Assembly: GCA_034530615.2 (NCBI GenBank)
Contig: JAVRCV020000059.1
Span: 64,001 to 128,000 of the forward strand
Length of the DNA: 64,000 bases
DNA from: Aulosira sp. ZfuVER01
GTDB taxonomy: Bacteria; Cyanobacteriota; Cyanobacteriia; Cyanobacteriales; Nostocaceae
Direction of reading: 5' to 3'
Shown: piece after piece, positions 18,865-32,467 of the stretch
How positions within the stretch are numbered: position 1 is the stretch's first letter
Layout of the letters: each line of letters begins with the position of its first letter
Notes under the pieces: generated by a model
Database searches by the model: none
Told to the model about the DNA's origin: nothing
Seen by the model: only the letters and a program-made list of their open reading frames with translations
Position numbers and translations under genes: made by a program

Positions 18865-21390
18865 ATGATGACATCTCCAGATACAGCAATTTGGCTACAA
18901 GAACGCACATCTTTAGGAATTCTCTCGCCTGCGGTGTTAGAGGCGATCGCTCAAGTGATGGAAATCCAAGTTGTATCGGAAGGTAGCACCCTAGTGAGCG
19001 AAGGTACTCAGCCAGAAGCACTTTACATTGTCCAAGATGGACACTTGGAAAGCGAAACTAGCAAAACCAACTCCGCTTTACCCCGTGGGTTCCTTCCTGG
19101 AGAAGTCATTAACCTCCAAGAATTACTGTTAGATGAGTTAACTCCATTTACAATTACTACTCTTAACGAATGTCATTTATGGGTGATACCTGCTGAAAAA
19201 TTTCGCGGTTTAGCTACTCAATACTCCGAAATTAATCAGGCTTTTTCTCGGCTGTTGGCGCAAGAATTGGCTGAGGTGACATCTGCTTTAAGCTACCAAC
19301 AAGAACGTACTTTAGCTTTACGTCCATATTTAGTTACTAAGGCGCAACGGGGAATTGTTGGTACAAGTCGCTATGCGGTGCGTCTGCGGGAGCAAATTCG
19401 CGAAGCCGCAAGCGATCGCTTGTCGGTAGAAATTTTTGGCGAACCAGGTTTAGAAAAAGATAATATCGCGGCTCTCATTCACTTTAGTTCCCCCAAGCGG
19501 CGAGAACCAATTATTAAAATAAATTGCGGGATTCTCCAAACCAGTGGTGCAGATTTATTTGGTCGGGCTGGCGGGAAACCCGGACTTTTAGAATGGTTAG
19601 GGGAAGGCACTTTAGTTCTGAATAATATCCAAGAATTGCCCCCAGAGTTATTACCAGCAGTAGCGCAGTTAGTTCAAAAAGATACATATACTCCTGTAAC
19701 TCGTGCTGGAGAACCAAAAGCTGAACCTCGTACTAGTAGAGCCAGGATTTTAATTGTCTCCGAAAGAACTCAGTCAACGATCGAACGCTGCGTTGGTCAT
19801 GTAATTAAAGTGCCACCACTACGGGTACGCAAAGCTGATATTAAAGCTCAGGTAGAATATTACACCAGTCTCTACAGCCGTGCGCGCGGTCTTGCTAAAC
19901 CGCATATTACCCCCGAAGCCTTGCGTCGTTTGCAAGCTTATGATTTCCCTGGCAATCTCAAAGAATTGAAGAATTTGGTAGAAAGAGCGATTGTTCAGGC
20001 GGGAAATGGGAAAGAACTCACAGAAGAAATCTTTTGGTCAGCCGAACCGAAGAAAAAGCAATTTCGCGTTAATTTATTAAATGCCTATCCTCGGTTGCGG
20101 CGGTTTTTGCGTAGTGACTGGTGGCCCGATCGCATTAATTATGGTTTTACCTTTGCAGCCTTTGCTTTTTTGGTAGGTGTGTTGTTTATTGGCCCGCAAA
20201 CACGCGATCGCAATTTTGCTTTAAATCTATTTTGGGCTTGGTGGTGGCCGTTCTTCCTGTTTCTCTTTCCCTTTTTAGGGCGTATCTGGTGTTCAGTCTG
20301 CCCCTTCATGATTTACGGTGAAATTACGCAGAAGTTATCTCTGTGGTTGTTTCCTCGGCAACTCAAGCGCTGGCCGAGGGAGAAAGCTGAGAAATGGGGC
20401 GGCTGGTTTTTATTTGGGCTATTTACCCTAATTTTCTTATGGGAAGAATTGTGGCACTTAGAAAATACAGCTTACCTCTCCGCTTGCTTGCTTTTATTAA
20501 TCACCGCCGGAGCAATGATTTTCTCTGCGATTTTTGAACGGCGGTTTTGGTGTCGTTATCTCTGTCCCATCGGCGGGATGAATGGTTTATTTGCCAAACT
20601 CTCAATGACTGAACTGCGGGCGCAGCAGGGTATCTGTTCTGCAAGTTGCACAACTTATCAATGCTATAAAGGCGGGCCGCAAAAAGGCGAAGGGATGGAA
20701 ACTAACGGCTGTCCTTTATACTCACACCCTGCACAGTTAGAAGATAACAGAGATTGTGTTTTGTGTATGACTTGCCTCAAAGCCTGTCCCCATCGTTCCG
20801 TCGAATTTAACTTGCGTCCCCCAGGAATTGAACTTTGGACAACTCATGTACCCCGCAGCTACGAAGTTGCACTGTTATTTTTAATGTTGGGTGGTGTATA
20901 TCTGCATCGTTTACCAGAATTGCAAGCTTGGTTAGGGCTAAACCTAGATTTAAATATTTTTTGGCAGCACTTAGGATTATCGCTGCTGGCTTTGCTGATT
21001 CCCGTAGCCATTCCCTTTGCTGCATACACGTTAATGCAACTATTGAATTTTGGACGTAAACCCAAAAGATTTATTGAACTTGCTTACGGCTACCTACCAT
21101 TGGTGTTAGGAGCTAACTTAGCCCACTATCTGCGTTTAGGGTTAGGCGAAGGAGGGCGCATTTTACCTGTGGCTTTTGCTACCTTTGGGTTGCATAGCGA
21201 GCAGTTACCTGTATTAGTAGCGCATCCCGCCGTAATTGCCTTTTTGCAAGGTAGTACCCTCATCTTTTCCGTACTTCTTACAATAGTGTTAACTCAAAAA
21301 ATTGCGCGACAACCATTTAAGGTGATGCTTTGGCAACATCTAGCAGCGATCGCTTTAGCTGTTAGTATGTGGGCAATTATTGTGTTGTAA
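18865..21390 (+). CDS. cNMP-binding / sigma54-interaction-like AAA / 4Fe-4S membrane protein
   Basis: N-terminal cNMP domain, FGEPGLEKD degenerate Walker A, WCSVCP, WCRYLCP, CVLCMTCLKACP, many TMs. Confidence 0.85.
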   Translation: MMTSPDTAIWLQERTSLGILSPAVLEAIAQVMEIQVVSEGSTLVSEGTQPEALYIVQDGHLESETSKTNSALPRGFLPGEVINLQELLLDELTPFTITTLNECHLWVIPAEKFRGLATQYSEINQAFSRLLAQELAEVTSALSYQQERTLALRPYLVTKAQRGIVGTSRYAVRLREQIREAASDRLSVEIFGEPGLEKDNIAALIHFSSPKRREPIIKINCGILQTSGADLFGRAGGKPGLLEWLGEGTLVLNNIQELPPELLPAVAQLVQKDTYTPVTRAGEPKAEPRTSRARILIVSERTQSTIERCVGHVIKVPPLRVRKADIKAQVEYYTSLYSRARGLAKPHITPEALRRLQAYDFPGNLKELKNLVERAIVQAGNGKELTEEIFWSAEPKKKQFRVNLLNAYPRLRRFLRSDWWPDRINYGFTFAAFAFLVGVLFIGPQTRDRNFALNLFWAWWWPFFLFLFPFLGRIWCSVCPFMIYGEITQKLSLWLFPRQLKRWPREKAEKWGGWFLFGLFTLIFLWEELWHLENTAYLSACLLLLITAGAMIFSAIFERRFWCRYLCPIGGMNGLFAKLSMTELRAQQGICSASCTTYQCYKGGPQKGEGMETNGCPLYSHPAQLEDNRDCVLCMTCLKACPHRSVEFNLRPPGIELWTTHVPRSYEVALLFLMLGGVYLHRLPELQAWLGLNLDLNIFWQHLGLSLLALLIPVAIPFAAYTLMQLLNFGRKPKRFIELAYGYLPLVLGANLAHYLRLGLGEGGRILPVAFATFGLHSEQLPVLVAHPAVIAFLQGSTLIFSVLLTIVLTQKIARQPFKVMLWQHLAAIALAVSMWAIIVL

Positions 21391-22225
21391 ACCAGGTTTC
21401 TAAATCCGCGATCGCCTGAAAATCTAATAATGCTTCACCTAGATTTTCTAATTGTTCTAAGGTGAGAGATTCAACGCGCGATCGCACGTCTTGGGGTAAT
21501 TCTCCCACACGACGAATAAGTTGACGGAGAACGAGCAATTGTCCTTCTGCTTTTCGTCCTTCTTCCCTTCCGCGTTGTTCTCCGCGTTGTTCGCCTTCAG
21601 CGAGGATTTCTTGATAAATTACTGACTCGCGCATCATACCCTCCCGAAATAATTGTTTAATCAAGCCCCGATCGTATTTTAACCCGGCTAAGATTTGGGT
21701 ATAAGCCGAAATTTCTGGTCTTTGTCTCGGTTCCAGTTGATTAACTTTGGCTATAACTTGTTGCAATAAGGCTTGGGGTTGTGTTGTTGCTGCCAGTGGT
21801 GCTAATGGTAACAAAGCTTCGTCATTGAGAAATAGTTCGGGATTTTCTTCCCACATGGAAATCACTCGATATTCATGACGAGTATTTTCGACTATAAAGG
21901 CAGTTTCAATCACCGTTCCTGGTGCGGGGGGAAGCAATAAGACAACAACTTGCGTGATTGGGAGGCGATACAAACGATACAAGCGTACCCAATAATCAAG
22001 CATTCGCAGGGGTAAGGGTGGTGTAGCTTGGAGTTTGGTTTGAAATTCCAGGTGGAGAATGCGTCCTTCTAGCTGTAAGAATGTGACATAATCAGCGCGA
22101 ATCGGTTCAATGCTCAATTCAGTTTTCAGGACTGTGGCAGAATTTTGTCGTGTACCCAAAACCCAACTGGCAAAACGTTCTGGATATTTTTCGGACAGTA
22201 GTTTGCACAGGTTATCAAAGGACAT
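21377..22225 (-). CDS. Rpn-family PD-(D/E)xK nuclease / putative transposase with DUF4351 tail
   Basis: IRAD...LHLEFQT, RMLDYW, MRESVIYQE, LEQLENLGEALLDF. Confidence 0.85.
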   Translation of the reverse strand: MSFDNLCKLLSEKYPERFASWVLGTRQNSATVLKTELSIEPIRADYVTFLQLEGRILHLEFQTKLQATPPLPLRMLDYWVRLYRLYRLPITQVVVLLLPPAPGTVIETAFIVENTRHEYRVISMWEENPELFLNDEALLPLAPLAATTQPQALLQQVIAKVNQLEPRQRPEISAYTQILAGLKYDRGLIKQLFREGMMRESVIYQEILAEGEQRGEQRGREEGRKAEGQLLVLRQLIRRVGELPQDVRSRVESLTLEQLENLGEALLDFQAIADLETWFTTQ

Positions 22226-22410
22226 TGACAATCAGCAACCATTGAAAGAGACATTGTTATTATCTCGTGCAGTGTTTTGAGTAGGCATGATTAGTTGGAT
22301 AGCTTGGTATCATATCTCTCAGCGTATATTTTTAAATTCTTGTAGATTTTTGTAGTATGTTATGCCAGAGCCTAACGCACCAATCATATATAGTGTAAGG
22401 ATTAAAAATA

Positions 22411-22989: not shown

Positions 22990-24609
22990 TTAGACTTTAC
23001 AAGTCTCAAGGCGAGAGAAGAGATACCCGACTGCCTTCCCACCCAGAATCCGATACGATATCTCATAGGAGGGACTGACGCGCGACGGGAGGTGTCCACG
23101 AGGGGCTGAAGTATTATAAGTTTCAACTACAATCCAGTTGCTTTCGACTCTCCATCCTACGCGATCGCCAAATTTCTTCCAGGCTTGTTCATCATACTTA
23201 CCACCTGGCTTACCACCAACGCTCAAGTAAATTTCTTTTTGAACGCTAAAGCCAAAGCGTCCATTGCTATATTTGACCCAGAGGCGGTCAATGGTGCGGA
23301 GGTCGGTACAGGGAAAGTTTAATAGTTCTTCATCTCTAATCCAGTCATTTTCCTTACGCCCTACCACTTGAAGCATTAGCACATAAGTTTCATAATCAGC
23401 ATCTTTCCACTTACCTGCTGCTAGTAGGTCGCGTAGTTTTGTATAGTCTACGCCTTTTTCTGAACTGAGGTCATTTTCCTTTGTAGCCGATTTAGAGGTA
23501 ATGTTTTTTGCTACCTTGTGCGCCCATTCTCGCTTGCTTTGAGAGGTAAATCGCGCCTCAATGTTTGCAATATCCTCATCTCTAAGTTGCAAAAGCTGCT
23601 GTAATCTCTTCAATTCTGCTTGTGTATGCTGGTTCAGAATCTCTTCATCCTGTATCGCCTCAACCAACGCTTCTTCGTATTCCCTGAGATTCTCTTGATA
23701 CTTGCGGTAAGGTTCCAAAACTTCGTTTTCAATTTGGGTTGCTATCTCAACTGACAAACCCAATTCACTTTGCCGACGTTTGAGAATGCGGCGACCTGTA
23801 ACAGAGACTTTACCATCTCTAACCCATCGTTCTACTTCTTTACGGTAATCTAATTGATGATCGCCTAAAGGAGCTTTCGCTAACTTAATTTTAAAGCCTT
23901 CTTTAATAGCATAAAGTTCTGGCTTCATTGCCGGGGCTGCTTCCTGCACTTTTTTACAGGCATATTCATGCAGTTCATCTACAGAAATCATGCCATCATT
24001 ATCAGTGTCAGCTGCGCCTTTCTCAATCCCTTCGACAATGTAGCGGGTGTAAACCGATAACTCTTCCCCTTCTTGTTCAAAAGAATACTGAGTAGATGTG
24101 GAAGAAGTTAGTACCGCCCTTCCTTCTCCTCCCAGTTGATTCTTGATGTCTAGGCTGTTATCACTTTTCGCTTTCATTCCTTCAGCAAAAGCACCGCTAA
24201 AGCAACAGTCAAGAATAATTACCTGTCGCCGGGAACGGCTATTTTCCATCATCTCATGTATGACTTTGGCAGCAATGGCGGTAGCTTTAATGAGTTCGCC
24301 CTTAGGATTCTTACGAGTTTGGCTAGTTGCTAAATATAATCTGCCAGTTTCATCTTTAATCCCATGTCCAGAGAAATACAACAGTAGTAGGTCATCTTTG
24401 TGACGACCAGAGAACAAGGTTTCAATTGCTTCTTCCATTATCTGGCGTGGGGGATTTTCCAACACTGTAATATCAGTATCAGCAAAATCACCCATTTCTG
24501 GGTGCTGTAACACTCGCTGCATTGCTTTTATATCTTGCACAGCGCTGGGTAAAGCATTTAACCCAGGTTGGTACTCACTAATTCCAATTAGCAATGCTAG
24601 CTTTGCCAT
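22990..24609 (-). CDS. Caspase-like peptidase (C14, EACC1-associated type) with C-terminal GUN4-like domain
   Basis: KLALLIGISEY, YFSGHG (His), ILDCCFSG (Cys); C-terminal LRDLLAAGKWKDADYET...LWVKYSNGRFGFSVQK...PRGHLP. Confidence 0.88.
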   Translation of the reverse strand: MAKLALLIGISEYQPGLNALPSAVQDIKAMQRVLQHPEMGDFADTDITVLENPPRQIMEEAIETLFSGRHKDDLLLLYFSGHGIKDETGRLYLATSQTRKNPKGELIKATAIAAKVIHEMMENSRSRRQVIILDCCFSGAFAEGMKAKSDNSLDIKNQLGGEGRAVLTSSTSTQYSFEQEGEELSVYTRYIVEGIEKGAADTDNDGMISVDELHEYACKKVQEAAPAMKPELYAIKEGFKIKLAKAPLGDHQLDYRKEVERWVRDGKVSVTGRRILKRRQSELGLSVEIATQIENEVLEPYRKYQENLREYEEALVEAIQDEEILNQHTQAELKRLQQLLQLRDEDIANIEARFTSQSKREWAHKVAKNITSKSATKENDLSSEKGVDYTKLRDLLAAGKWKDADYETYVLMLQVVGRKENDWIRDEELLNFPCTDLRTIDRLWVKYSNGRFGFSVQKEIYLSVGGKPGGKYDEQAWKKFGDRVGWRVESNWIVVETYNTSAPRGHLPSRVSPSYEISYRILGGKAVGYLFSRLETCKV

Positions 24610-24617
24610 GTACCTAT

Positions 24618-25010
24618 CTACACTTTTGTAATCTCTTGTATTGCATTTACTGCGGCTTCTAATTCTTGGCGACTGCTGGCTTTGACCTTAACTTTCTTGC
24701 TTTCACCACTTTCTTTGGTTAATTCTAGTTCTATTTCAATGGGTTTGTTACCTAAACGGTCAGTGAGAAAACCCCAAACTTGCTTGACACTATCTGATTT
24801 CACCAAAGCAATCACTTGACCGACAACATAGCCTGTGATTGACTTGCTTCCCACTGGTGCGTTGAGTTCAGCTACTCGGTTAACTTCTTCTACCTCATTG
24901 AGTTCTTTCATTTGATTCAGAAGTCTTTCGGCTTCTTCGTCTTTTTCCTCTTCATCCAAGTCTTGGTCAATAAAGGTGATTGTCAGTTTCAGGTCTGATG
25001 TGTCTGCCAT
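24618..25010 (-). CDS. EACC1-like effector-associated constant component
   Basis: 130 aa, acidic N-terminus, APVGSKS motif, ends 8 nt before caspase start. Confidence 0.7.
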   Translation of the reverse strand: MADTSDLKLTITFIDQDLDEEEKDEEAERLLNQMKELNEVEEVNRVAELNAPVGSKSITGYVVGQVIALVKSDSVKQVWGFLTDRLGNKPIEIELELTKESGESKKVKVKASSRQELEAAVNAIQEITKV

Positions 25011-25640: not shown

Positions 25641-26138
25641 ATGCCAAATGAGCTGTTACAAATTCTAGTGCCTGCATTTATTGGTGCCGCTTCTGGATAT
25701 CTAATTAATCAATTGCCGCCACTGAGAACGTTTCGAGGTAGCAAGTTACTGGTAATTGCTATAGCGATTGAACTTGCGGTTTTGGGAGGAATTTGGGCAT
25801 GGTTAGCTGGAGATGTTGCTAAAACCTCGAATATCAGGGGACTAGTAGAAAAGCTTGGTTTTGCATTATTAGGAGCTTTTGTAGTTAATTTTATGCAACT
25901 TATATTTGGGATCAGTTGGGGTAGACAATCTGCACAACCAACTTTCCCGCAGCCAGGCACAAATGCTGGAACTGTGGTGAGAGGTACAAAGATGACCGGA
26001 AAGGGCAATAAAGCCACAGTTAGCAAAGGAGATGTGTGGGTAGAAAATACTGAAATAGATGGTGAAAACCAGGAATTTTCTGTAACAGATGATTTCAATC
26101 GGCCTTCTTCGCAACAAAATAATACTCCGAATCCATGA
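25641..26138 (+). CDS. Small membrane protein (about 3 TM) with C-terminal 2 x 21-aa pseudo-repeat
   Basis: Three hydrophobic segments, Pro/Gln linker, repeats GTVVRGTKMTGKGNKATVSKG / DVWVENTEIDGENQEFSVTDD; ATGA overlap with next gene. Confidence 0.8.
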   Translation: MPNELLQILVPAFIGAASGYLINQLPPLRTFRGSKLLVIAIAIELAVLGGIWAWLAGDVAKTSNIRGLVEKLGFALLGAFVVNFMQLIFGISWGRQSAQPTFPQPGTNAGTVVRGTKMTGKGNKATVSKGDVWVENTEIDGENQEFSVTDDFNRPSSQQNNTPNP

Positions 26139-26917
26139 TTATCGCCAATCACATGATCGCTAATCGCACGCAGGAAGTTTTACTTTTTGAGCAGATGGTA
26201 GCGGGAAGCTTTACCAAACGAGTGCTACTGATTGAAGGTAAATCTGGTTTTGGTAAGACTTGGTTACTGGCTCGGTTGAAACAAACTCTGCCTCTAAAGA
26301 CGTTATGTGTACAAGTAGATTTCAAATTACCACAACCAGGCATTCCTGATATTTTTTTTTATATACGCAGGCGTTTGGGAAAGGAAAATTTTCCTCAGTT
26401 AAATGCTGCTTCTGAGCGATATTTGAGTTCGGGGATACAAATCTGTGACACTACAATGATTGGAAAAGATAACCAATTTAGTGTAGTTTTGAGCAATTTA
26501 GATGAGAGTACACGAAATTTTCGCTTGACTCTATTAAGAGAAGCATTTTTTGAGGACTTGCGTAAAATTCCCCAAAAACTAGTTTTTTTGTTTGATTCTT
26601 ACGAAAAAGCCCCTACTGAACTGGCAAATTGGTTAGAGGGTGAATTCTTAGCAGAAGTTGTCTATACACCCAAATTAATTGTAGTAATTGCCGGACAGCA
26701 GATTCCTCAAGCAACAATCGAATGGATAGATTTACATCATTGTTGTTCTTTGGAAGCCATTTTGGAATTAAAAGCATGGTGTGAATACGCCCAAAATGAA
26801 AGATTATCCCTGAATCACTATGAAGTGAATGCAGCGATGGTTCTGTGTAAAGGGCAACCTGCTGAAATTGCGGCAGCCTTAAAGACGCTAGAGGCGGAAG
26901 CGAGGAAAAGGCAATGA
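26135..26917 (+). CDS. Stand-alone STAND/AAA_16-like P-loop NTPase
   Basis: Walker A LLIEGKSGFGKT, Walker B LVFLFDSYE; ATGA overlaps at both ends. Confidence 0.85.
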   Translation: MIIANHMIANRTQEVLLFEQMVAGSFTKRVLLIEGKSGFGKTWLLARLKQTLPLKTLCVQVDFKLPQPGIPDIFFYIRRRLGKENFPQLNAASERYLSSGIQICDTTMIGKDNQFSVVLSNLDESTRNFRLTLLREAFFEDLRKIPQKLVFLFDSYEKAPTELANWLEGEFLAEVVYTPKLIVVIAGQQIPQATIEWIDLHHCCSLEAILELKAWCEYAQNERLSLNHYEVNAAMVLCKGQPAEIAAALKTLEAEARKRQ

Positions 26918-29523
26918 ATAATCCTTTATTAGAGAAGCTAGCAAAGGCACAAACAGACGAAGAACGTTTTTGGATTGTAACTGAGAGTTTACTTTCGACG
27001 CTTTCACCTGATTTAGCAGCAGTAGCGTGGGCTGCGGCAATTCCTCACTGGTTTAATGCAGATATCTTGGCGGCACTGCGTCCAGAATTGCAAGCACAAG
27101 CATCTCAGCTTTATATTGAATTGCAAGGCTTACCTTTCGTAGAAGAGTTTCCACGTCAAGGGCATAATATTCACGATTTAACACGACGGCAAATGTTAAA
27201 TCACTTGTGGCATGAGCATCGAAATGAATTTATGACGATGTCACAACGAGCAGCAGAGTATTTTTTCAGCAGCTATGAGCGTCAAGAAAAGATAAATGAC
27301 CAGCCAGAAACTCAAATTGAATGGCTGTATCACTTAGTGGTAATTGACCCAGAATGGAAAGGTAGTGAGCTTAGGGATTTAGCAAAAAACTGGGTGAATA
27401 ATTTTCGCACTGCTGAACTAGAATATCTGATTGGAGCATTACTAGAACAGATTACAGCAGAGCGAGTGGCAACACTTGCTAAAGCAGAAACTTACTTTTG
27501 GGCAGGTAGAGCGAAATTTCAATTTTCTAAGACAACAGAAGCTTTAGAGAGCTACAAAGCAGCATTAGAATTCTACCGCCAGATGGGTAATCATTTGGGG
27601 GAAGCTAATACCTTAAAAGCAATCGGTGATGTCTTGCACTTCCAAAAACAAACTACTGAAGCCTTAGAAAGCTATGAAGCGGCATTGGCATTCTACCGTG
27701 ACATGGTCGTTAGCGAAGTTCCTCCTTTGGAGGCTCGCTTGGGGGAAGCTAATACCTTAAAAGCAATCGGCGATGTCTTGCAGTTGCTTGACCGATGCAG
27801 CGAAGCCTTAGAAAGCTACGAAGCAGCATTGATATCCTACCGTGACATTGTCGTTAGCGAAGTTTCTCCTTTGGAGGCTCGCTTGGAGAAAGCTAATATC
27901 CTAAAAGCAATCGGTGATGTCTTGCAGTTCCTTGACCGACGCAGCAAAGCCTTAGAAAGCTACCAAGAAGCATTGGTATCCTACAGCCAGATTAGTGCTC
28001 GTTTGGGGGAAGCCAATACATTAAAAGCAATCGGCGATGTTTTACAGTTCCAAAAAGACAGTAGTGGAGCCTTAAAAAACTACAAAATGGCATTGAGACT
28101 CTACCGCCAAATTAATGCTCACCTGGGGGAAGCTAATACTTTAAGAGCAATGGGTGATGTCTTGCAGTTCCAAAAAGACAGTAGTGGAGCCTTAAAAAAC
28201 TACAAAGCAGCATTGACATTGTACCGCCAGATTGGCGATCGCTTAGGGGAAGCCAATACCTTAAAAGCAATCGGCGATGTTTTGAAGTTCCAAAAAGACA
28301 GTATTAAAGCTTTAAATAAATACGAAACCGCATTGGAATTATACCGCCAGATTAGCGCTCGCTTGGGGGAAGCCAATACTTTAAGAGCAGTCGGCGATGT
28401 TTTGCAGTTCCAAAAAGACAGTACTAGAGCCTTAGAATGCTATGAAGCAGCATTGGAATTATACCACCAGATTGGCGATCGCTTGGGGGAAGCCAATACT
28501 TTAAGAGTAATCGGCGATGTTTTGCAGTTCCAAAAAGACAGTACTCAAGCCTTAACTAAATACGAAGCGGCACTGCGCTTATACCACGACGTAGGCGATC
28601 GATTGGGAGAAGCTAATACTTTAAGAGCAATCGGTGATGTCTTGCAGTTCCTTGACCGAAAAACCGAAGCCTTAGAACGCTACCAAGAAGCATTAGCATC
28701 CTACCAACAGATTGAAGCTCGCTTGGGAGAAGCTAATACTTTAAAAGCGATCGGCGATGTTTTGCAGTCTCAAAGAAGTAGTACTGAAGCCTTACAAAAC
28801 TACGAAGCAGCATTTGCGTTATACCGCGACATTGTTGATCTTTTAGGAGAAGCTAACACCTTAAAAGCAATTGGCGATGTTTTGCAGTCCCAAGGAAGCA
28901 GTACTGAAGCCTTAGAACGCTACGCAGCGTCATTGGAATTATACCGTCGGATTGGTGCTCGTCTTGGAGAAGCTAATACTTTACAGGCAATCGGTGATGT
29001 TTTGCAATCTCGGGAAAATAGTGACGAAGCCTTAGAACGCTACGAAGCAGCATTGGAATTATACCGTCAGATTGGCGCTTGCTTAGGAGAAGCTAATACT
29101 TTACAGGCAATGGGTGATGTCTTACGCTTCCTTAAGCGACACACCAAAGCTTTAGAGCGCTACGAAGAAGCATTGACATTATGTCGTCAAATCAGATATC
29201 GCTTGGGAGAAGCTAATACTTTACAAGCTATAGGAATCTTACAAGAAAATTTAACTTCGGGTTTAACGTATTGTCAGGAAGCATTAAAATTGTATAACCA
29301 AATGAGTGATAAGTATAGCCAAAGTCGGAATTTAATATACTTTACATCTGAAATTCTCTTAAAACTAGGACGACAACAAGAAGCATTAGATACCCTCCAT
29401 CAAGCTATTGATCTTGCTAGTGAAATTCCCTATCAAAAATTGGTAAACGTTGCCTCAGAAAAAATTAGCGAAATCCACAGATCAGCACGGGATAATGCAA
29501 AGAGTGAGAGACGCGGAGATTAA
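26914..29523 (+). CDS. Winged-helix (STAND-associated) + TPR-repeat protein
   Basis: N-terminal AAAIPHWF...LPFVE...NIHDLTR (MHD-like), then ~14-15 40-aa repeats LGEANTLKAIGDVLQF. Confidence 0.88.
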   Translation: MNNPLLEKLAKAQTDEERFWIVTESLLSTLSPDLAAVAWAAAIPHWFNADILAALRPELQAQASQLYIELQGLPFVEEFPRQGHNIHDLTRRQMLNHLWHEHRNEFMTMSQRAAEYFFSSYERQEKINDQPETQIEWLYHLVVIDPEWKGSELRDLAKNWVNNFRTAELEYLIGALLEQITAERVATLAKAETYFWAGRAKFQFSKTTEALESYKAALEFYRQMGNHLGEANTLKAIGDVLHFQKQTTEALESYEAALAFYRDMVVSEVPPLEARLGEANTLKAIGDVLQLLDRCSEALESYEAALISYRDIVVSEVSPLEARLEKANILKAIGDVLQFLDRRSKALESYQEALVSYSQISARLGEANTLKAIGDVLQFQKDSSGALKNYKMALRLYRQINAHLGEANTLRAMGDVLQFQKDSSGALKNYKAALTLYRQIGDRLGEANTLKAIGDVLKFQKDSIKALNKYETALELYRQISARLGEANTLRAVGDVLQFQKDSTRALECYEAALELYHQIGDRLGEANTLRVIGDVLQFQKDSTQALTKYEAALRLYHDVGDRLGEANTLRAIGDVLQFLDRKTEALERYQEALASYQQIEARLGEANTLKAIGDVLQSQRSSTEALQNYEAAFALYRDIVDLLGEANTLKAIGDVLQSQGSSTEALERYAASLELYRRIGARLGEANTLQAIGDVLQSRENSDEALERYEAALELYRQIGACLGEANTLQAMGDVLRFLKRHTKALERYEEALTLCRQIRYRLGEANTLQAIGILQENLTSGLTYCQEALKLYNQMSDKYSQSRNLIYFTSEILLKLGRQQEALDTLHQAIDLASEIPYQKLVNVASEKISEIHRSARDNAKSERRGD

Positions 29524-29615: not shown

Positions 29616-30476
29616 TTACTTTTCTACCATTTCTTTCTTCTTCTGCGGTGTAAATATCCCGTGTCGAGGACTAAATAATAATGCCAATACAAATAATCCC
29701 GATACTACTAAAACGATCGCGGGGCCGGAGGGTAAGTTATAAAAGTAGCTGAGGTACATTCCACTAATACTAGAAATTACGCCGATAACTGCACCCAAAA
29801 TCATGACTTGGTTTAAGCGTTTAACTAATAAATAGGCGGTAGCACCTGGGGTAATTAATAGTGAAAGTACAAGAATCACACCTACAGCTTTCATGCTGGC
29901 GACAATTGTTAACGCAATTAGCAGCATTAATCCAAAGTTCAGCCGATTTACTGGTAAACCTGCGGCTTGTGCGCCTAAGGGGTCAAAAGTGTAAAATAAA
30001 AGTTCTTTATATAACAAAACTACAACTAATAAAACAATCGCGGCAATGATGGCAGTGTCTCTGACTTCATCAATAGTAACGCCAAGAATATTACCGAAAA
30101 GAAAGTGATTGAGGTCGATTTTGTTATCTTTTTGAATGACGGTAATTAGAGTAATACCAAGGGCAAAAAATGCCGAGAAAACTATGCCCATTGCGGCATC
30201 TTCTTTAATTGGCGATCGCGTTCTAATTACTGCGATCGCCATTGTACTAAGAACGCCGGCAATAAATGCGCCAACAAATATATTCCCTCCCACCATAAAA
30301 GCGATCGCTAGTCCTGGCAAAACTGAGTGACTGATGGCATCACCAAGTAATGCCAATCGCTGTACCATTAAGTAGCTGCCAACAACTGCACACAATAAGC
30401 CGACTAAAATCGCAATCACTAGCGATCGCTGCATAAAGCCATATTGTAATGGCTCGATTAATGCTTGAAATGTCAT
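29616..30476 (-). CDS. mntB: Mn ABC transporter permease
   Basis: LLGDAISHSVLPG, ABC-3 family TMs. Confidence 0.85.
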   Translation of the reverse strand: MTFQALIEPLQYGFMQRSLVIAILVGLLCAVVGSYLMVQRLALLGDAISHSVLPGLAIAFMVGGNIFVGAFIAGVLSTMAIAVIRTRSPIKEDAAMGIVFSAFFALGITLITVIQKDNKIDLNHFLFGNILGVTIDEVRDTAIIAAIVLLVVVLLYKELLFYTFDPLGAQAAGLPVNRLNFGLMLLIALTIVASMKAVGVILVLSLLITPGATAYLLVKRLNQVMILGAVIGVISSISGMYLSYFYNLPSGPAIVLVVSGLFVLALLFSPRHGIFTPQKKKEMVEK

Positions 30477-30535
30477 TTGTTATTTGTCATTTGTAATTTG
30501 TCAGGCACAGGAATTTCCTTTTTCCTTTTCCCTTT

Positions 30536-31363
30536 TTATGCTGCATCAGAAAAGTACATTACTTTACCACCATAAGCACTGTGTAAGTTTTCTTCGGTGA
30601 GTACTTGCTGCCGTGAACCTGTGGCTATTAATTCCCGGTTTAATAATATTAAATCATCAAAGTGGGCTATCGATTCCCCTAAGTCGTGGTTGACTACTAA
30701 GACAATTTTGCCTGCGGTTGCAAGTTCATGAAAGACTTCAAATACTACTGTCTGAGTCTTCTGATCGATACCTACTAATGGTTCATCAAAGCAGAAAATT
30801 TCTGCTTGCTGGGTTAAAGCACGGGCTAAAAATACTCGTTGCTGCTGTCCTCCAGAAAGTTCTCCAATGGGGCGATCGCGAAATTGGTTCATCCCCACTC
30901 TTTCTAAAGCATTATTTGCTACTTGGCGGCTAACTGCGGAAAAGCTACGCAACCATCCTGTTTTTTTGACCCTTCCCATCATTACTACATCCCAGACTGT
31001 AGCAGGGTAAGTCCAATCTATTTGGCTGCGCTGTGGTACATAAGCAACTTTCTCTAGTTGCTGCATTAACGGTTTACCTTGGTATAAGACATTACCACTA
31101 ATTGGAGTAACTAAGCCTAACATGGCTTTCATTAAAGTACTTTTACCAGCACCATTGGGGCCAAAAATACCTGTAAGTCTACCAGGTTCAATAAAACAGT
31201 TGACATCTCTCAAAGCTTCTTGTGTGCGGTAGTGTACCCCAAGATGGGTGATGCTAATTCCTTGTGTAGATTTCATTTCATGAGTTTTGATTGCTTGTGT
31301 AGATATTTCCCTAGTTTGCCTCGGTGCTAGGCTCATCTTTTTGTAAAAAGAGATACTCTTCAT
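30536..31363 (-). CDS. mntA: Mn ABC transporter ATP-binding protein
   Basis: GPNGAGKS, AYVPQ, LSGGQQQR; true start may be the downstream Met. Confidence 0.85.
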   Translation of the reverse strand: MKSISFYKKMSLAPRQTREISTQAIKTHEMKSTQGISITHLGVHYRTQEALRDVNCFIEPGRLTGIFGPNGAGKSTLMKAMLGLVTPISGNVLYQGKPLMQQLEKVAYVPQRSQIDWTYPATVWDVVMMGRVKKTGWLRSFSAVSRQVANNALERVGMNQFRDRPIGELSGGQQQRVFLARALTQQAEIFCFDEPLVGIDQKTQTVVFEVFHELATAGKIVLVVNHDLGESIAHFDDLILLNRELIATGSRQQVLTEENLHSAYGGKVMYFSDAA

Positions 31364-31403
31364 AATATTGTTTTAATATTTCATTCTTTGAGCTTACTAT
31401 AAA

Positions 31404-31422
31404 AATGAGAAAAATATGAAAA
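31404..31422 (+). promoter_or_regulatory. ManR-type binding site (direct repeat)
   Basis: AATGAGAA-aaa-TATGAAAA fits the (T/A)ATGA(G/A)A(A/G) direct repeat recalled for Anabaena ManR; lies between divergent mntA and mntC. Confidence 0.65.
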
Positions 31423-31453
31423 AATCTATAGTGAGAAGTAATATTACAGATAA

Positions 31454-32467
31454 ATGAAACTAATGCTTGGGATAGACATGAGTAGTTGGAGTAAAGCGAA
31501 GGTAAATAAAATCAACAAGAATATTGTTTCGCAGATATGCCTGGGAATGCTTCTACCTTTGGCTTTATTTGGTTGTAGCCAACCGACTGAAGGTAACAAT
31601 CCTCAGGGAAATGGTAAACCGAAGGTTGTTGCAACCAGCACAATCATTGCTGATTTAACACAAGAAATTGCGGGAGAGGAAATTCAGCTAACTGGAATTC
31701 TCAAACCAGGTACAGATCCCCATGTTTACGAACCAGTACCAGCAGACAGCCGGGTTTTAGAAGAAGCTAAATTGATTTTGTATAACGGCTACAACCTGGA
31801 ACCGGGATTGATTAAGTTAATGAATGCTGCTGGTGGAAGAGTAAAGCGGTTAGCAGTGGGAGAAGTTGTCAAACCTTTGGAGTTAGATAAAGGGAAAGGC
31901 GAAATAGTCCCAGATCCTCATGTTTGGGGTAGTGCAGAAAATGCGATCGCAATGGTAACTGTAATTCGTGATGGTTTAATTGAGCTATTACCAGAAGATA
32001 AAGCGAAATTTACGCAGAATGCAGCGCAACTCACCAATGAATTAAAGCAGTTGCATAGCTGGATTAATCAACAAATCCAAACTATCCCAGCAGATAAACG
32101 CAAACTTGTGACAACGCACGATGCCTTTCAATATTATGGACGTGCTTATCAAATAGCGATCGCGGGTACATTAATCGGTATCAGCACCGAAGAACAACCA
32201 AGCGCCCAAACAGTACAGCGATTGGTAGAGTCAATTAAAAAAATCGGTGTTAGTTCAATTTTTGCTGAAACCACAATCAATCCCGCTTTAATCAAGACTG
32301 TAGCCCAAGAAGCCGGAGTGAAACTAGCACCACATCAACTCTACTCTGACTCAATTGGCGCAAAAGGTAGTGAAGGCGATACTTATATTAAAATGATGGA
32401 GGCGAATACCCGCACCATTGTTGAAGCGCTAGGGGGCAAATATACGCCTTTTAAAGCAAATAAGTGA
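31454..32467 (+). CDS. mntC: Mn ABC transporter substrate-binding lipoprotein
   Basis: Lipobox LFGC; DPHVYEP, DPHVW, STEEQPS, LYSDS (His/His/Glu/Asp ligand set typical of Mn binders). Confidence 0.85.
   Translation: MKLMLGIDMSSWSKAKVNKINKNIVSQICLGMLLPLALFGCSQPTEGNNPQGNGKPKVVATSTIIADLTQEIAGEEIQLTGILKPGTDPHVYEPVPADSRVLEEAKLILYNGYNLEPGLIKLMNAAGGRVKRLAVGEVVKPLELDKGKGEIVPDPHVWGSAENAIAMVTVIRDGLIELLPEDKAKFTQNAAQLTNELKQLHSWINQQIQTIPADKRKLVTTHDAFQYYGRAYQIAIAGTLIGISTEEQPSAQTVQRLVESIKKIGVSSIFAETTINPALIKTVAQEAGVKLAPHQLYSDSIGAKGSEGDTYIKMMEANTRTIVEALGGKYTPFKANK

Follow-up and report, generated by a model that had tools for sequence, protein, structure and literature searches.

Here we describe a three-gene operon in a 64,000-nt stretch of DNA from the cyanobacterium Aulosira sp. 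ZfuVER01 (the whole stretch is called the window, and L0xx and P0xxx are labels of the related loci and proteins with which it was compared). With a probability of roughly 0.6, the three translationally coupled genes make up a split conflict system which resembles a NOD-like receptor (NLR) of the STAND class (signal transduction ATPases with numerous domains) and has a separate membrane effector, coupled to it through a shared motif by the mechanism proposed below. The genes follow one another on the + strand in the order effector, P-loop NTPase and tetratricopeptide repeat (TPR) protein, each junction being a 4-nt ATGA overlap (Table 1), and the motif is present as two tandem repeats (R1 and R2) in the effector and as one copy in a loop of the NTPase. 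Sequence comparison supports the shared motif as a real, co-evolving link between effector and NTPase, and there is good support for coupling by way of this motif. In at least seven types of the motif, drawn from two phyla, the copies in the two genes have changed together, and across relatives the effector itself is swapped, being a membrane protein in cyanobacteria and a CHAT protease in Chloroflexota. An earlier note on this DNA had likened the pair to a fungal effector and its NLR, and the swap of the membrane effector for CHAT agrees with it, as it is also reported in the available sections of the literature on bacterial amyloid signalling sequences (BASS). By analogy, the motif most likely links the sensor to a putative cell-killing effector as the known amyloid signalling motifs do.

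The link between the two genes was followed through related loci. In the Nostocales loci on genome contigs, the membrane gene lies directly upstream of the NTPase gene and the TPR gene downstream in 13 of 14, and the TPR gene is third in the operon throughout the operons examined. One locus (L014:4929-5273) is a truncated remnant in which the NTPase is reduced to its C-terminal half and the effector gene is missing. The motif is kept in 20 cyanobacterial homologues of the NTPase, those of Nostoc and Calothrix among them, and three homologues from Chloroflexota carry a longer variant; the loop motif is conserved in Nostocales and variable between lineages. A CHAT protease identified by Pfam is the upstream gene in four of the nine Chloroflexota loci (L015, L016, L017 and L019), and the CHAT and NTPase genes of L015 are separated by a 320-aa gene (L015:3983-4945) that belongs to no known family. 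The NTPase loops of Chloroflexota are longer and different, and each CHAT C-terminal region carries the loop variant of its own locus: SVSIGDVAGRDI in the CHAT protein and EVAVGDVAGRDI in the loop of L015, GGDVSGGDMIKGN and GGDVAGGHIIKDN in L016, DSTISIGDVAGRDL and DSTVSMGDVAGRDI in L017, and ISEISGGSIIIAGGSV and ISNISGGEVIIAGGDV in L019. GDVAGRDI is found in loop and effector of both L015 and L017, and ISGG..IIAGG.V in both proteins of L019. The cognate loop-effector scores were 72, 76, 85 and 77 for L015, L016, L017 and L019, respectively, and 32-47 for Nostocales, and cross-type scores were 16-31.

The same behavior was seen in further cyanobacteria. The NTPase family is present in 8 of the 401 genomes searched in the window's phylum, and the additional loci from this search have the same three-gene layout with a different motif common to each locus. 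N.LTGE.S.I occurs in both the loop and the effector of L030, and FSEND is common to the loop and R2 in L033 and also to the L034 pair; the loop/effector match is weaker in L028. Two effector repeats and one receptor copy were found for the window type and for at least three other motif variants (L028, L030 and L033). When loops and effectors of eight representative loci were paired in every possible way, only the true pairing among 40320 reached the cognate score sum, and with the five membrane-type loci only, one of 120 pairings reached it; the ranks of the cognate effector across the eight loci were 1, 1, 2, 1, 7, 1, 1 and 1. Covariation in homologous gene pairs, which the earlier note had named as a check on its proposal, was therefore found in the 8-locus comparison. 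Among 29 loci examined on metagenome contigs, three had no upstream DNA, which leaves 26 testable loci (L036 and L058 duplicate the sequences of L005 and L017), and a matching upstream effector was found in 10 of them, nine at 0/1000 shuffles and one at 3/1000.

The receptor-side copy of the motif lies in an unusual part of the NTPase. The AlphaFold2 (AF2) model of this protein, made from a 23-sequence alignment, has a mean pLDDT (predicted local distance difference test) of 84.2 and a pTM (predicted template modelling score) of 0.80, and the 22 residues 100-121, between helix 87-98 and helix 124-144, have a pLDDT below 50. They contain the motif copy GIQICDTTMIGKDNQFSV (residues 100-117, nt 26432-26485), which is flanked by Walker A (GKSGFGKT, residues 35-42) and Walker B (LVFLFD, residues 149-154). 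The single copy between the two Walker motifs had been described in the earlier note with exact coordinates, as had the starts of R1 and R2 at nt 25968 and 26031. A normal core strand at this place would have spoken against that note's proposal; according to the model, the copy is instead a disordered loop insert within a well-predicted fold.

The NTPase shows the AAA+-type P-loop fold with a Walker A GK(S/T) and a Walker B Asp that is expected of a STAND/NLR-like NTPase. Weak Pfam matches were obtained to NACHT, AAA_22 and AAA_16, and Foldseek matches of the model include the archaeal Walker ATPase 2qen, ORC/Cdc6, MalT, Sr35, Avs4 and CED-4, with E values of 4e-7 to 4e-5 for the STAND, ORC and AAA+ chains, and also HslU and RuvBL chains. 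Given these AAA+/STAND fold matches, the PDB sequence matches of the NTPase profile to Rab GTPases (best E = 0.0014, residues 23-100) were read as generic P-loop similarity. In the family, G40 and K41 of Walker A are kept in 160/160 and 159/160 members and D154 of Walker B in 169/169; the residue after D154 is T or S in 142 of the 169, and E is found at +3 in 115. From this conservation, nucleotide binding by the NTPase is likely. No PADLOC defence-system model fits the effector or the NTPase, except mad8 at E = 0.005. A complex prediction of the NTPase with effector residues 100-165 gave a score of 0.02, which counts neither for nor against an interaction.

The loop site was also compared across the whole family, using a profile search over 1.84 billion representatives that returned 2717 members at E <= 0.001, 1145 at <= 1e-10 and 159 at <= 1e-30, mostly of 250-300 aa. 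In the 160 best-scoring members retaining the N-terminal half, the insert is 25-35 aa long in 116, 36-70 aa in 30, at most 24 aa in 6 and at least 100 aa in 8, and in six of these last eight the site is filled by the Pfam domain EAD7 (EAD, effector-associated domain), which belongs to a class described as homotypic effector-recruiting adaptors in the available part of Kaur et al. 2020 (PMC7159879). Sixteen members have N-terminal extensions with CHAT, TIR_2, EAD1, EAD4, EAD7, a winged-helix domain or others, and only one of these 16 reaches 10 bits with the short-loop profile, compared with 101 of the 108 stand-alone members. The profile was itself made from 93 of these 108, so that the second figure is partly circular, and related members do not count as independent; we read the contrast as a trend rather than a test. 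Taken together, the family alignments point to the loop between Walker A and Walker B as an adaptor port. The CHAT proteins upstream of the NTPase in L016, L050, L054, L057, L060 and L062 carry the strand motif, which is followed at the CHAT C-terminus by a Pfam EAD7 domain in L016 and, judged by inspection, by an EAD7-like sequence in the other five; the CHAT protein of L016 thus has two different adaptors on one effector.

The third gene would supply the sensor half of the receptor. Its product matches TPR_12 at E = 7e-86, and in two relatives, P0113 and P0133, one polypeptide contains both this NTPase and, behind it, TPRs. In both, the N-terminal 290 aa of the window's TPR protein have their collinear counterpart immediately behind the NTPase module, at P0113 320-586 (E = 3e-7) and P0133 299-560 (E = 1e-9). 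These alignments indicate that the NTPase and the arm/TPR protein are an NLR split over two genes, with the NTPase as the first half and the TPR protein as the sensor half. The STAND/NLR layout, a nucleotide-binding oligomerisation domain followed by an arm and superstructure-forming repeats, is present here but divided over two genes. The first 200 aa of the TPR protein gave no match to PDB sequences at E <= 1, and a winged-helix domain was not shown directly. The TPR gene contains DNA repeats with a 120-bp unit (11.2 copies, 76% matches) and 144-bp units at 87%, and the length of the TPR protein varies between 331 and 869 aa among orthologues, suggesting that the repeats are rapidly gained and lost. 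Near-identical NLR sensor repeats of varying length are also described in the available part of Dyrka et al. 2020 (bioRxiv 10.1101/2020.01.06.895854).

The effector is, as the earlier note stated, a 165-aa membrane protein ending in two tandem 21-aa repeats. Kyte-Doolittle hydropathy gives two clear transmembrane (TM) segments, at about 33-57 and 71-94, behind a moderately hydrophobic N-terminal helix which has E at position 4; of the three long helices, two reach TM hydropathy. Beyond the TM segments, a disordered linker leads to the tail with R1 and R2. The AF2 model, with a modest pLDDT of 63, has helices at 2-23, 35-56 and 66-94, and the tail is probably cytoplasmic because the basic loop 24-34 precedes the first TM segment (positive-inside rule). 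The effector had no family match in Pfam, NCBIfam or PADLOC, its model had no Foldseek match in PDB at E <= 0.001, and an ESM Atlas look-up gave no usable match. It has 25 homologues, the named ones being from Nostoc or Calothrix, and the repeats are kept across these 25 aligned sequences, with three broken or truncated there. Decayed effectors were observed as well: P0014 has a frameshifted R2, and the open reading frames of L004 and L010 are shortened at the N-terminus.

R2 starts exactly 21 residues after R1 and the repeats abut with no linker. The predicted strands of R2 (133-135, 138-140 and 145-148) repeat those of R1 (112-114, 117-119 and 124-127) with an offset of 21, and T2, T7, G11 and N/Q14 are near-invariant in both repeats (24-25 sequences). 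At positions 5, 10, 12, 15 and 20, R1 is basic and R2 acidic. Opposite-charge pairs between the repeats peak at the parallel offset of 21, with a mean of 5.04 over 23 sequences, compared with at most 3.09 at other parallel offsets and at most 3.57 in any antiparallel register, and an antiparallel hairpin of R1 and R2 was rejected for this poorer fit. Position 12 is K/E (R1/R2) in 13 sequences, and the charges are swapped to D/K in P0013 and to E/K in P0024. The charge pattern fits what a two-rung parallel stack would give, and the pairing partly follows from the same in/out pattern and the opposite net charge of the two repeats.

Table 1. Positions of the operon, its motif copies and neighboring genes in the window.
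Feature	Position (nt)	Strand	Remarks
Membrane effector, 165 aa	25641-26138	+	stop overlaps NTPase start (ATGA)
P-loop NTPase, 260 aa, AAA+/STAND type	26135-26917	+	nucleotide-binding domain (NBD) and helical lid; stop overlaps TPR gene start
TPR sensor protein, 869 aa	26914-29523	+	N-terminal helical 'arm' of ~190 aa, then near-identical TPR units
R1, basic 21-aa repeat GTVVRGTKMTGKGNKATVSKG, begins GTVVRGTKMTGKGNKATV	25968-26030	+	effector residue 110 onward
R2, acidic 21-aa repeat DVWVENTEIDGENQEFSVTDD, begins DVWVENTEIDGENQEFSV	26031-26093	+	effector residue 131 onward
Receptor-side motif loop LSSGIQICDTTMIGKDNQFSVVLSN, NTPase residues 97-121	26423-26497	+	between helices 87-98 and 124-144
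DNA repeats of the TPR gene	27595-29223		120-bp and 144-bp units
DUF4351 protein	21377-22231	-	flanks the island
EACC1-type two-gene conflict system	22990-25010	-	includes caspase-GUN4 protein, 539 aa
Zinc/manganese ABC uptake cluster	29616-32467		ABC-3 permease, ABC ATPase, ZnuA

Compared with known systems, the operon shares several features with BASS, the amyloid signalling sequences that pair Bell-domain effectors with NLRs. The Bell domain is a helical bundle about 120-140 aa long, with a hydrophobic helix at its N-terminus. The statements on published work here and below refer to the portions of the sources that were available. BASS motifs are about 20-25 aa long, predicted to be β, with conserved G/N/Q, rich in Q, N, G, V and I and poor in K, P and L (Dyrka et al. 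2020), and their partners include Bell, CHAT, TIR and EAD7. The likeness extends to adjacent, collinear and often overlapping genes with a β-prone motif of this length on the effector C-terminal region and on the receptor, effector pseudo-repeats in some families, small helical/membrane-targeting, CHAT or TIR effectors, NB-TPR receptors with highly similar repeats, and occurrence in filamentous Cyanobacteria and Chloroflexota. In the window, the same motif is likewise found on the effector C-terminal region and on the adjacent collinear receptor gene, with a 4-nt overlap and covariation. The effector units are 21 aa long with three short AF2 strands each and conserved T7, G11 and N/Q14, and R1 is K-rich. 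By eye and unscored, the Chloroflexota-type motifs resemble motifs in the available part of the PMC8086366 supplement, with an AGRD core in C01, 'VWAGRDITIG' in C06 and 'SISGG...VIQ' in C02. The present system differs from BASS in that the NLR is split in two (NTPase; arm and TPR) and the effector has real TM segments. The receptor motif of BASS is placed in a 10-150-aa N-terminal extension before NACHT or NB-ARC, whereas the copy here, at residues 100-117, lies inside the fold, so that the internal position is indeed as unusual as the earlier note expected. In Dyrka et al. 2020, the region screened was limited to the 10-150 aa that precede a NACHT or NB-ARC domain detected by Pfam; therefore, the published screen could not find an internal motif. 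The receptor motif is N-terminal in that study, in the 2025 detection paper and in BASS11 Agp, and a literature search found no title or abstract describing an internal receptor-side motif.

A like motif is also found at the canonical place. In the genome of L020, one protein has it in an extension N-terminal to a NACHT domain (Pfam, 174-348), which is the canonical place for amyloid signalling motifs, and a TCAD2 protein has it at the N-terminus (E = 0.0115 and 6.2e-4); partner candidates for an orphan NTPase were found only in this genome. The motif GG.N..GG...G.I.GRD heads the TCAD2 and NACHT proteins at L077:1171-1623 (-) and L078:1-1656 (-), far from the loop-bearing NTPase. These matches suggest that proteins carrying one and the same motif form a network throughout that Chloroflexota genome.

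The operon also resembles the fungal HET-S/HET-s and NWD2 pair. The repeats of HET-s are charge-complementary at equivalent positions (salt bridges), as are R1 and R2 here. Both systems have two 21-residue pseudo-repeats with conserved Gly and Asn/Gln on a membrane-targeting effector and one on the NLR, and this two-repeat effector and one-copy receptor layout is found in HET-s/NWD2, BASS1 and BASS6 (Dyrka et al. 2020). The HET-S/NWD2-like two-plus-one arrangement pointed out in the earlier note stands, and the repeats are charge-complementary, but other parts of the HET-s-related amyloid motif (HRAM) architecture are absent. Two 21-residue repeats of complementary charge fit a parallel register, in which they would stack; in place of the 6-15-aa linker and the HeLo domain, R2 follows directly after R1, and the effector has no HeLo or other Pfam match. 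The receptor copy is internal here, which is a further difference. In the Bab/Agp system with BASS11 of E. coli (Ibarlosa et al. 2024, bioRxiv 10.1101/2024.11.07.622273), the motif similarly stands at the C-terminus of a small effector, which starts with a hydrophobic helix, and recurs in the TPR sensor encoded next to it; this motif class is also tied to CHAT, EAD7 and NACHT, and transmissible foci have been shown for BASS11. The Agp motif is however N-terminal, there is no NTPase (TPR-GreA/B-C-PIN), and the function is proven there and putative here.

Functional modules projected from inserts between Walker A and Walker B are found in the HslU I domain, RuvBL domain II and the TM inserts of KAP NTPases; the likeness is in the projected module, and the difference is that the inserts there consist of folded domains or TM hairpins and serve other purposes. 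Coupling through EADs (Kaur, Burroughs, Iyer, Aravind 2020, PMC7159879) is similar in that the same small module is present on the core NTPase and on a separate effector, with adjacent copies most alike, but EADs are globular and mostly helical, whereas the module here is a strand motif of ~20 residues. A cognate adaptor on both the NTPase and a stand-alone effector is found literally in the paralogues with EAD7 in the loop (6/8) and in the CHAT-motif-EAD7 protein of L016, and by analogy for the window's motif. The word 'amyloid' has no occurrence in the available text of Kaur et al. 2020; in that of Kaur et al. 2021, it occurs once, in a reference title, and the passages with 'insert' are on other matters.

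In the mechanism we propose, the TPR protein would act as an arm and repeat sensor, and the 260-aa protein as the nucleotide-binding oligomerisation domain. The flexible loop between Walker A and Walker B would display one strand-forming copy of about 20 residues, and the cytoplasmic tail of the effector would display two copies, one basic and one acidic, stackable in register. Triggering of the sensor and oligomerisation of the NTPase would gather the loops and nucleate a homotypic cross-β, solenoid-like assembly. This assembly would recruit or template the effector tails, so that the membrane helices cluster and the membrane is damaged; in the Chloroflexota relatives, it would activate the CHAT protease by proximity instead. 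From the comparisons above, we infer the physical binding, the cross-β/amyloid structure, the templating, the topology of the tail, the killing through the membrane and a role in immunity or abortive infection. The interpretation in the earlier note, in which NTPase oligomerisation templates a β-solenoid/amyloid fold that clusters the membrane effector, is on the whole partly supported.

Several observations, however, weigh against this reading. In the window alone, the similarity is modest: Smith-Waterman alignment of the loop with the whole effector gave a score of 32, which was matched by 11 of 2000 loop shuffles. A profile of the effector repeats, made from 20 homologues with the window's own protein excluded, was searched against the 70,412 six-frame segments of the 8.03-Mb genome, and the NTPase loop was the best non-self match but reached only E = 0.047 (15 bits), with the next match at E = 1.6. 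A loop-only profile reached the effector at just E = 6, R1-only and R2-only profiles did not reach the loop at E <= 10, and no second carrier of the motif was found elsewhere in the window's genome (next match E = 1). The 15-residue pattern given in the earlier note matches three places in the same segments, all in this operon, and since it was derived from those three copies, these matches show uniqueness only. Among relatives, the match in L035 is not significant (602/2000 shuffles reach its score), the L030 loop scores 41 with the window's effector and 40 with its own, and fine-scale covariation within Nostocales is inconsistent by eye. A matching upstream gene is missing in 16 of the 26 testable metagenome loci; the unmatched ones include a clade with 'PVNVSIGNENSLTSS'-type loops, several of them downstream of a single recurring gene that is unrelated, and in the available flanks of eight metagenome loci the orphan NTPases were found to have no partner. 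Four of the nine Chloroflexota genome loci (L018, L020, L021 and L022) have no adjacent effector, and no partner for the NTPases of L018 and L021 was found in those genomes; the ninth, L023, is a contig fragment truncated at the 5' end. R1, with four K and one R, is lysine-rich in contrast to the reported K depletion of BASS motifs, and no 5-mers of the window-type motif occur in the portion of the BASS data set (PMC8086366) that was checked. The usual second acidic residue of Walker B is absent, and therefore hydrolysis by the NTPase, and with it hydrolysis-driven cycling, is uncertain. In sum, the window by itself moderately indicates a motif likeness beyond chance, and with the relatives included the indication is strong. 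The shared motif claimed in the earlier note holds up by its covariation across relatives, but the similarity in the window's clade is weaker than was implied, and its presence in homologous pairs extends to the 10 matched metagenome loci and not to the 16 others.

These points bear differently on the other explanations. That loop and tail in the window resemble each other by chance, or as a functionless relic of local duplication, with the loop a mere variable surface loop, would agree with the modest window-only statistics, the result for L035 and the many loci without a partner. It is already disfavored and very improbable in our judgment, given the joint change of the motif in both genes, which spans two phyla and at least seven types, with one of 40320 pairings, the nine metagenome loci at 0/1000 shuffles and the loss of the loop motif in 15 of the 16 N-terminally fused members. 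A different possibility is that the loop and the effector tail are competing peptide ligands of one site, for example a TPR groove in a scheme of autoinhibition and release, and that they resemble each other through this competition. Short extended peptides are common ligands of TPR arrays, the third place in the operon always belongs to the TPR gene, and members without a matching effector retain a loop. This explanation leaves the two repeats with in-register charge complementarity and swaps unaccounted for, as well as the finding that EAD7, which is a homotypic adaptor, can take the place of the loop, and near-identical TPR units of varying number (in proteins of 331 to 869 aa) would be an odd target for a lineage-specific ligand; we regard it as improbable.

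A closer relative of our proposal is a finite, stoichiometric β-sheet or mini-solenoid, in which one loop copy is added to R1-R2 as a minimal EAD without open-ended amyloid or prion-like polymerisation. The covariation and the port evidence fit it equally well. The Chloroflexota-type motifs resemble published BASS families by eye, a like motif stands at a NACHT N-terminus, the canonical place of amyloid motifs, and the two-plus-one repeat layout is that of HET-s/NWD2, BASS1 and BASS6, all of which argue for an amyloid-type assembly. On the other hand, R1 abuts R2 without a linker and offers just two rungs, its K-rich composition is unlike that of typical BASS, and EAD7 at the same site in paralogues is a globular, non-amyloid adaptor. 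We consider the finite assembly rather unlikely, and prefer the motif-coupled split NLR with templating of the effector tails.

The operon forms a small island set among housekeeping genes (Table 1). Upstream of the island are leuS and a cNMP-binding sigma-54-type AAA+ protein with a Fer4_5 domain, the DUF4351 protein at its flank is one that we take to be possibly recombination-nuclease or transposase-like, and the metal uptake cluster lies immediately downstream. The adjacent EACC1-type system contains a caspase-GUN4 protein which matches NCBIfam caspase_w_EACC1 (E = 7.6e-55), Pfam Peptidase_C14 and GUN4, and PADLOC PD-T4-6 (E = 2.5e-48), and the EACC1 position beside its gene is taken by a 130-aa acidic protein that matches no model. 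This pair was considered as a component of the system, for example with the motif as a cleavage site, and was rejected: a homologue of either protein was found in the flanks of 0 of 21 related loci.

In conclusion, amyloid-motif signalling from NLRs to death effectors is known, from the portions of the literature available, in fungi, in filamentous bacteria and in an E. coli antiphage system. What is new here is the receptor copy within the ATP-binding domain, at a site where paralogues place a classical adaptor domain, which joins the literatures on BASS motifs and on EAD adaptors at one structural position, suggests a route from oligomerisation to a templating surface, and draws attention to a large family without annotation which motif screens, through their design, overlook. 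More tentatively, the NBD itself may carry a prion-like nucleation element, so that ring assembly would directly build the amyloid template and the loop port would be filled by lineage-specific amyloid-type motifs or EAD7; we hold this to be possible, if somewhat doubtful. If true, the family (1145 cluster representatives at E <= 1e-10) would be one of split NLRs with internal motifs that were missed by N-terminus-only screens, and the membrane-anchored two-rung tails would represent a novel class of effectors in which an amyloid trigger leads to pores or lysis.

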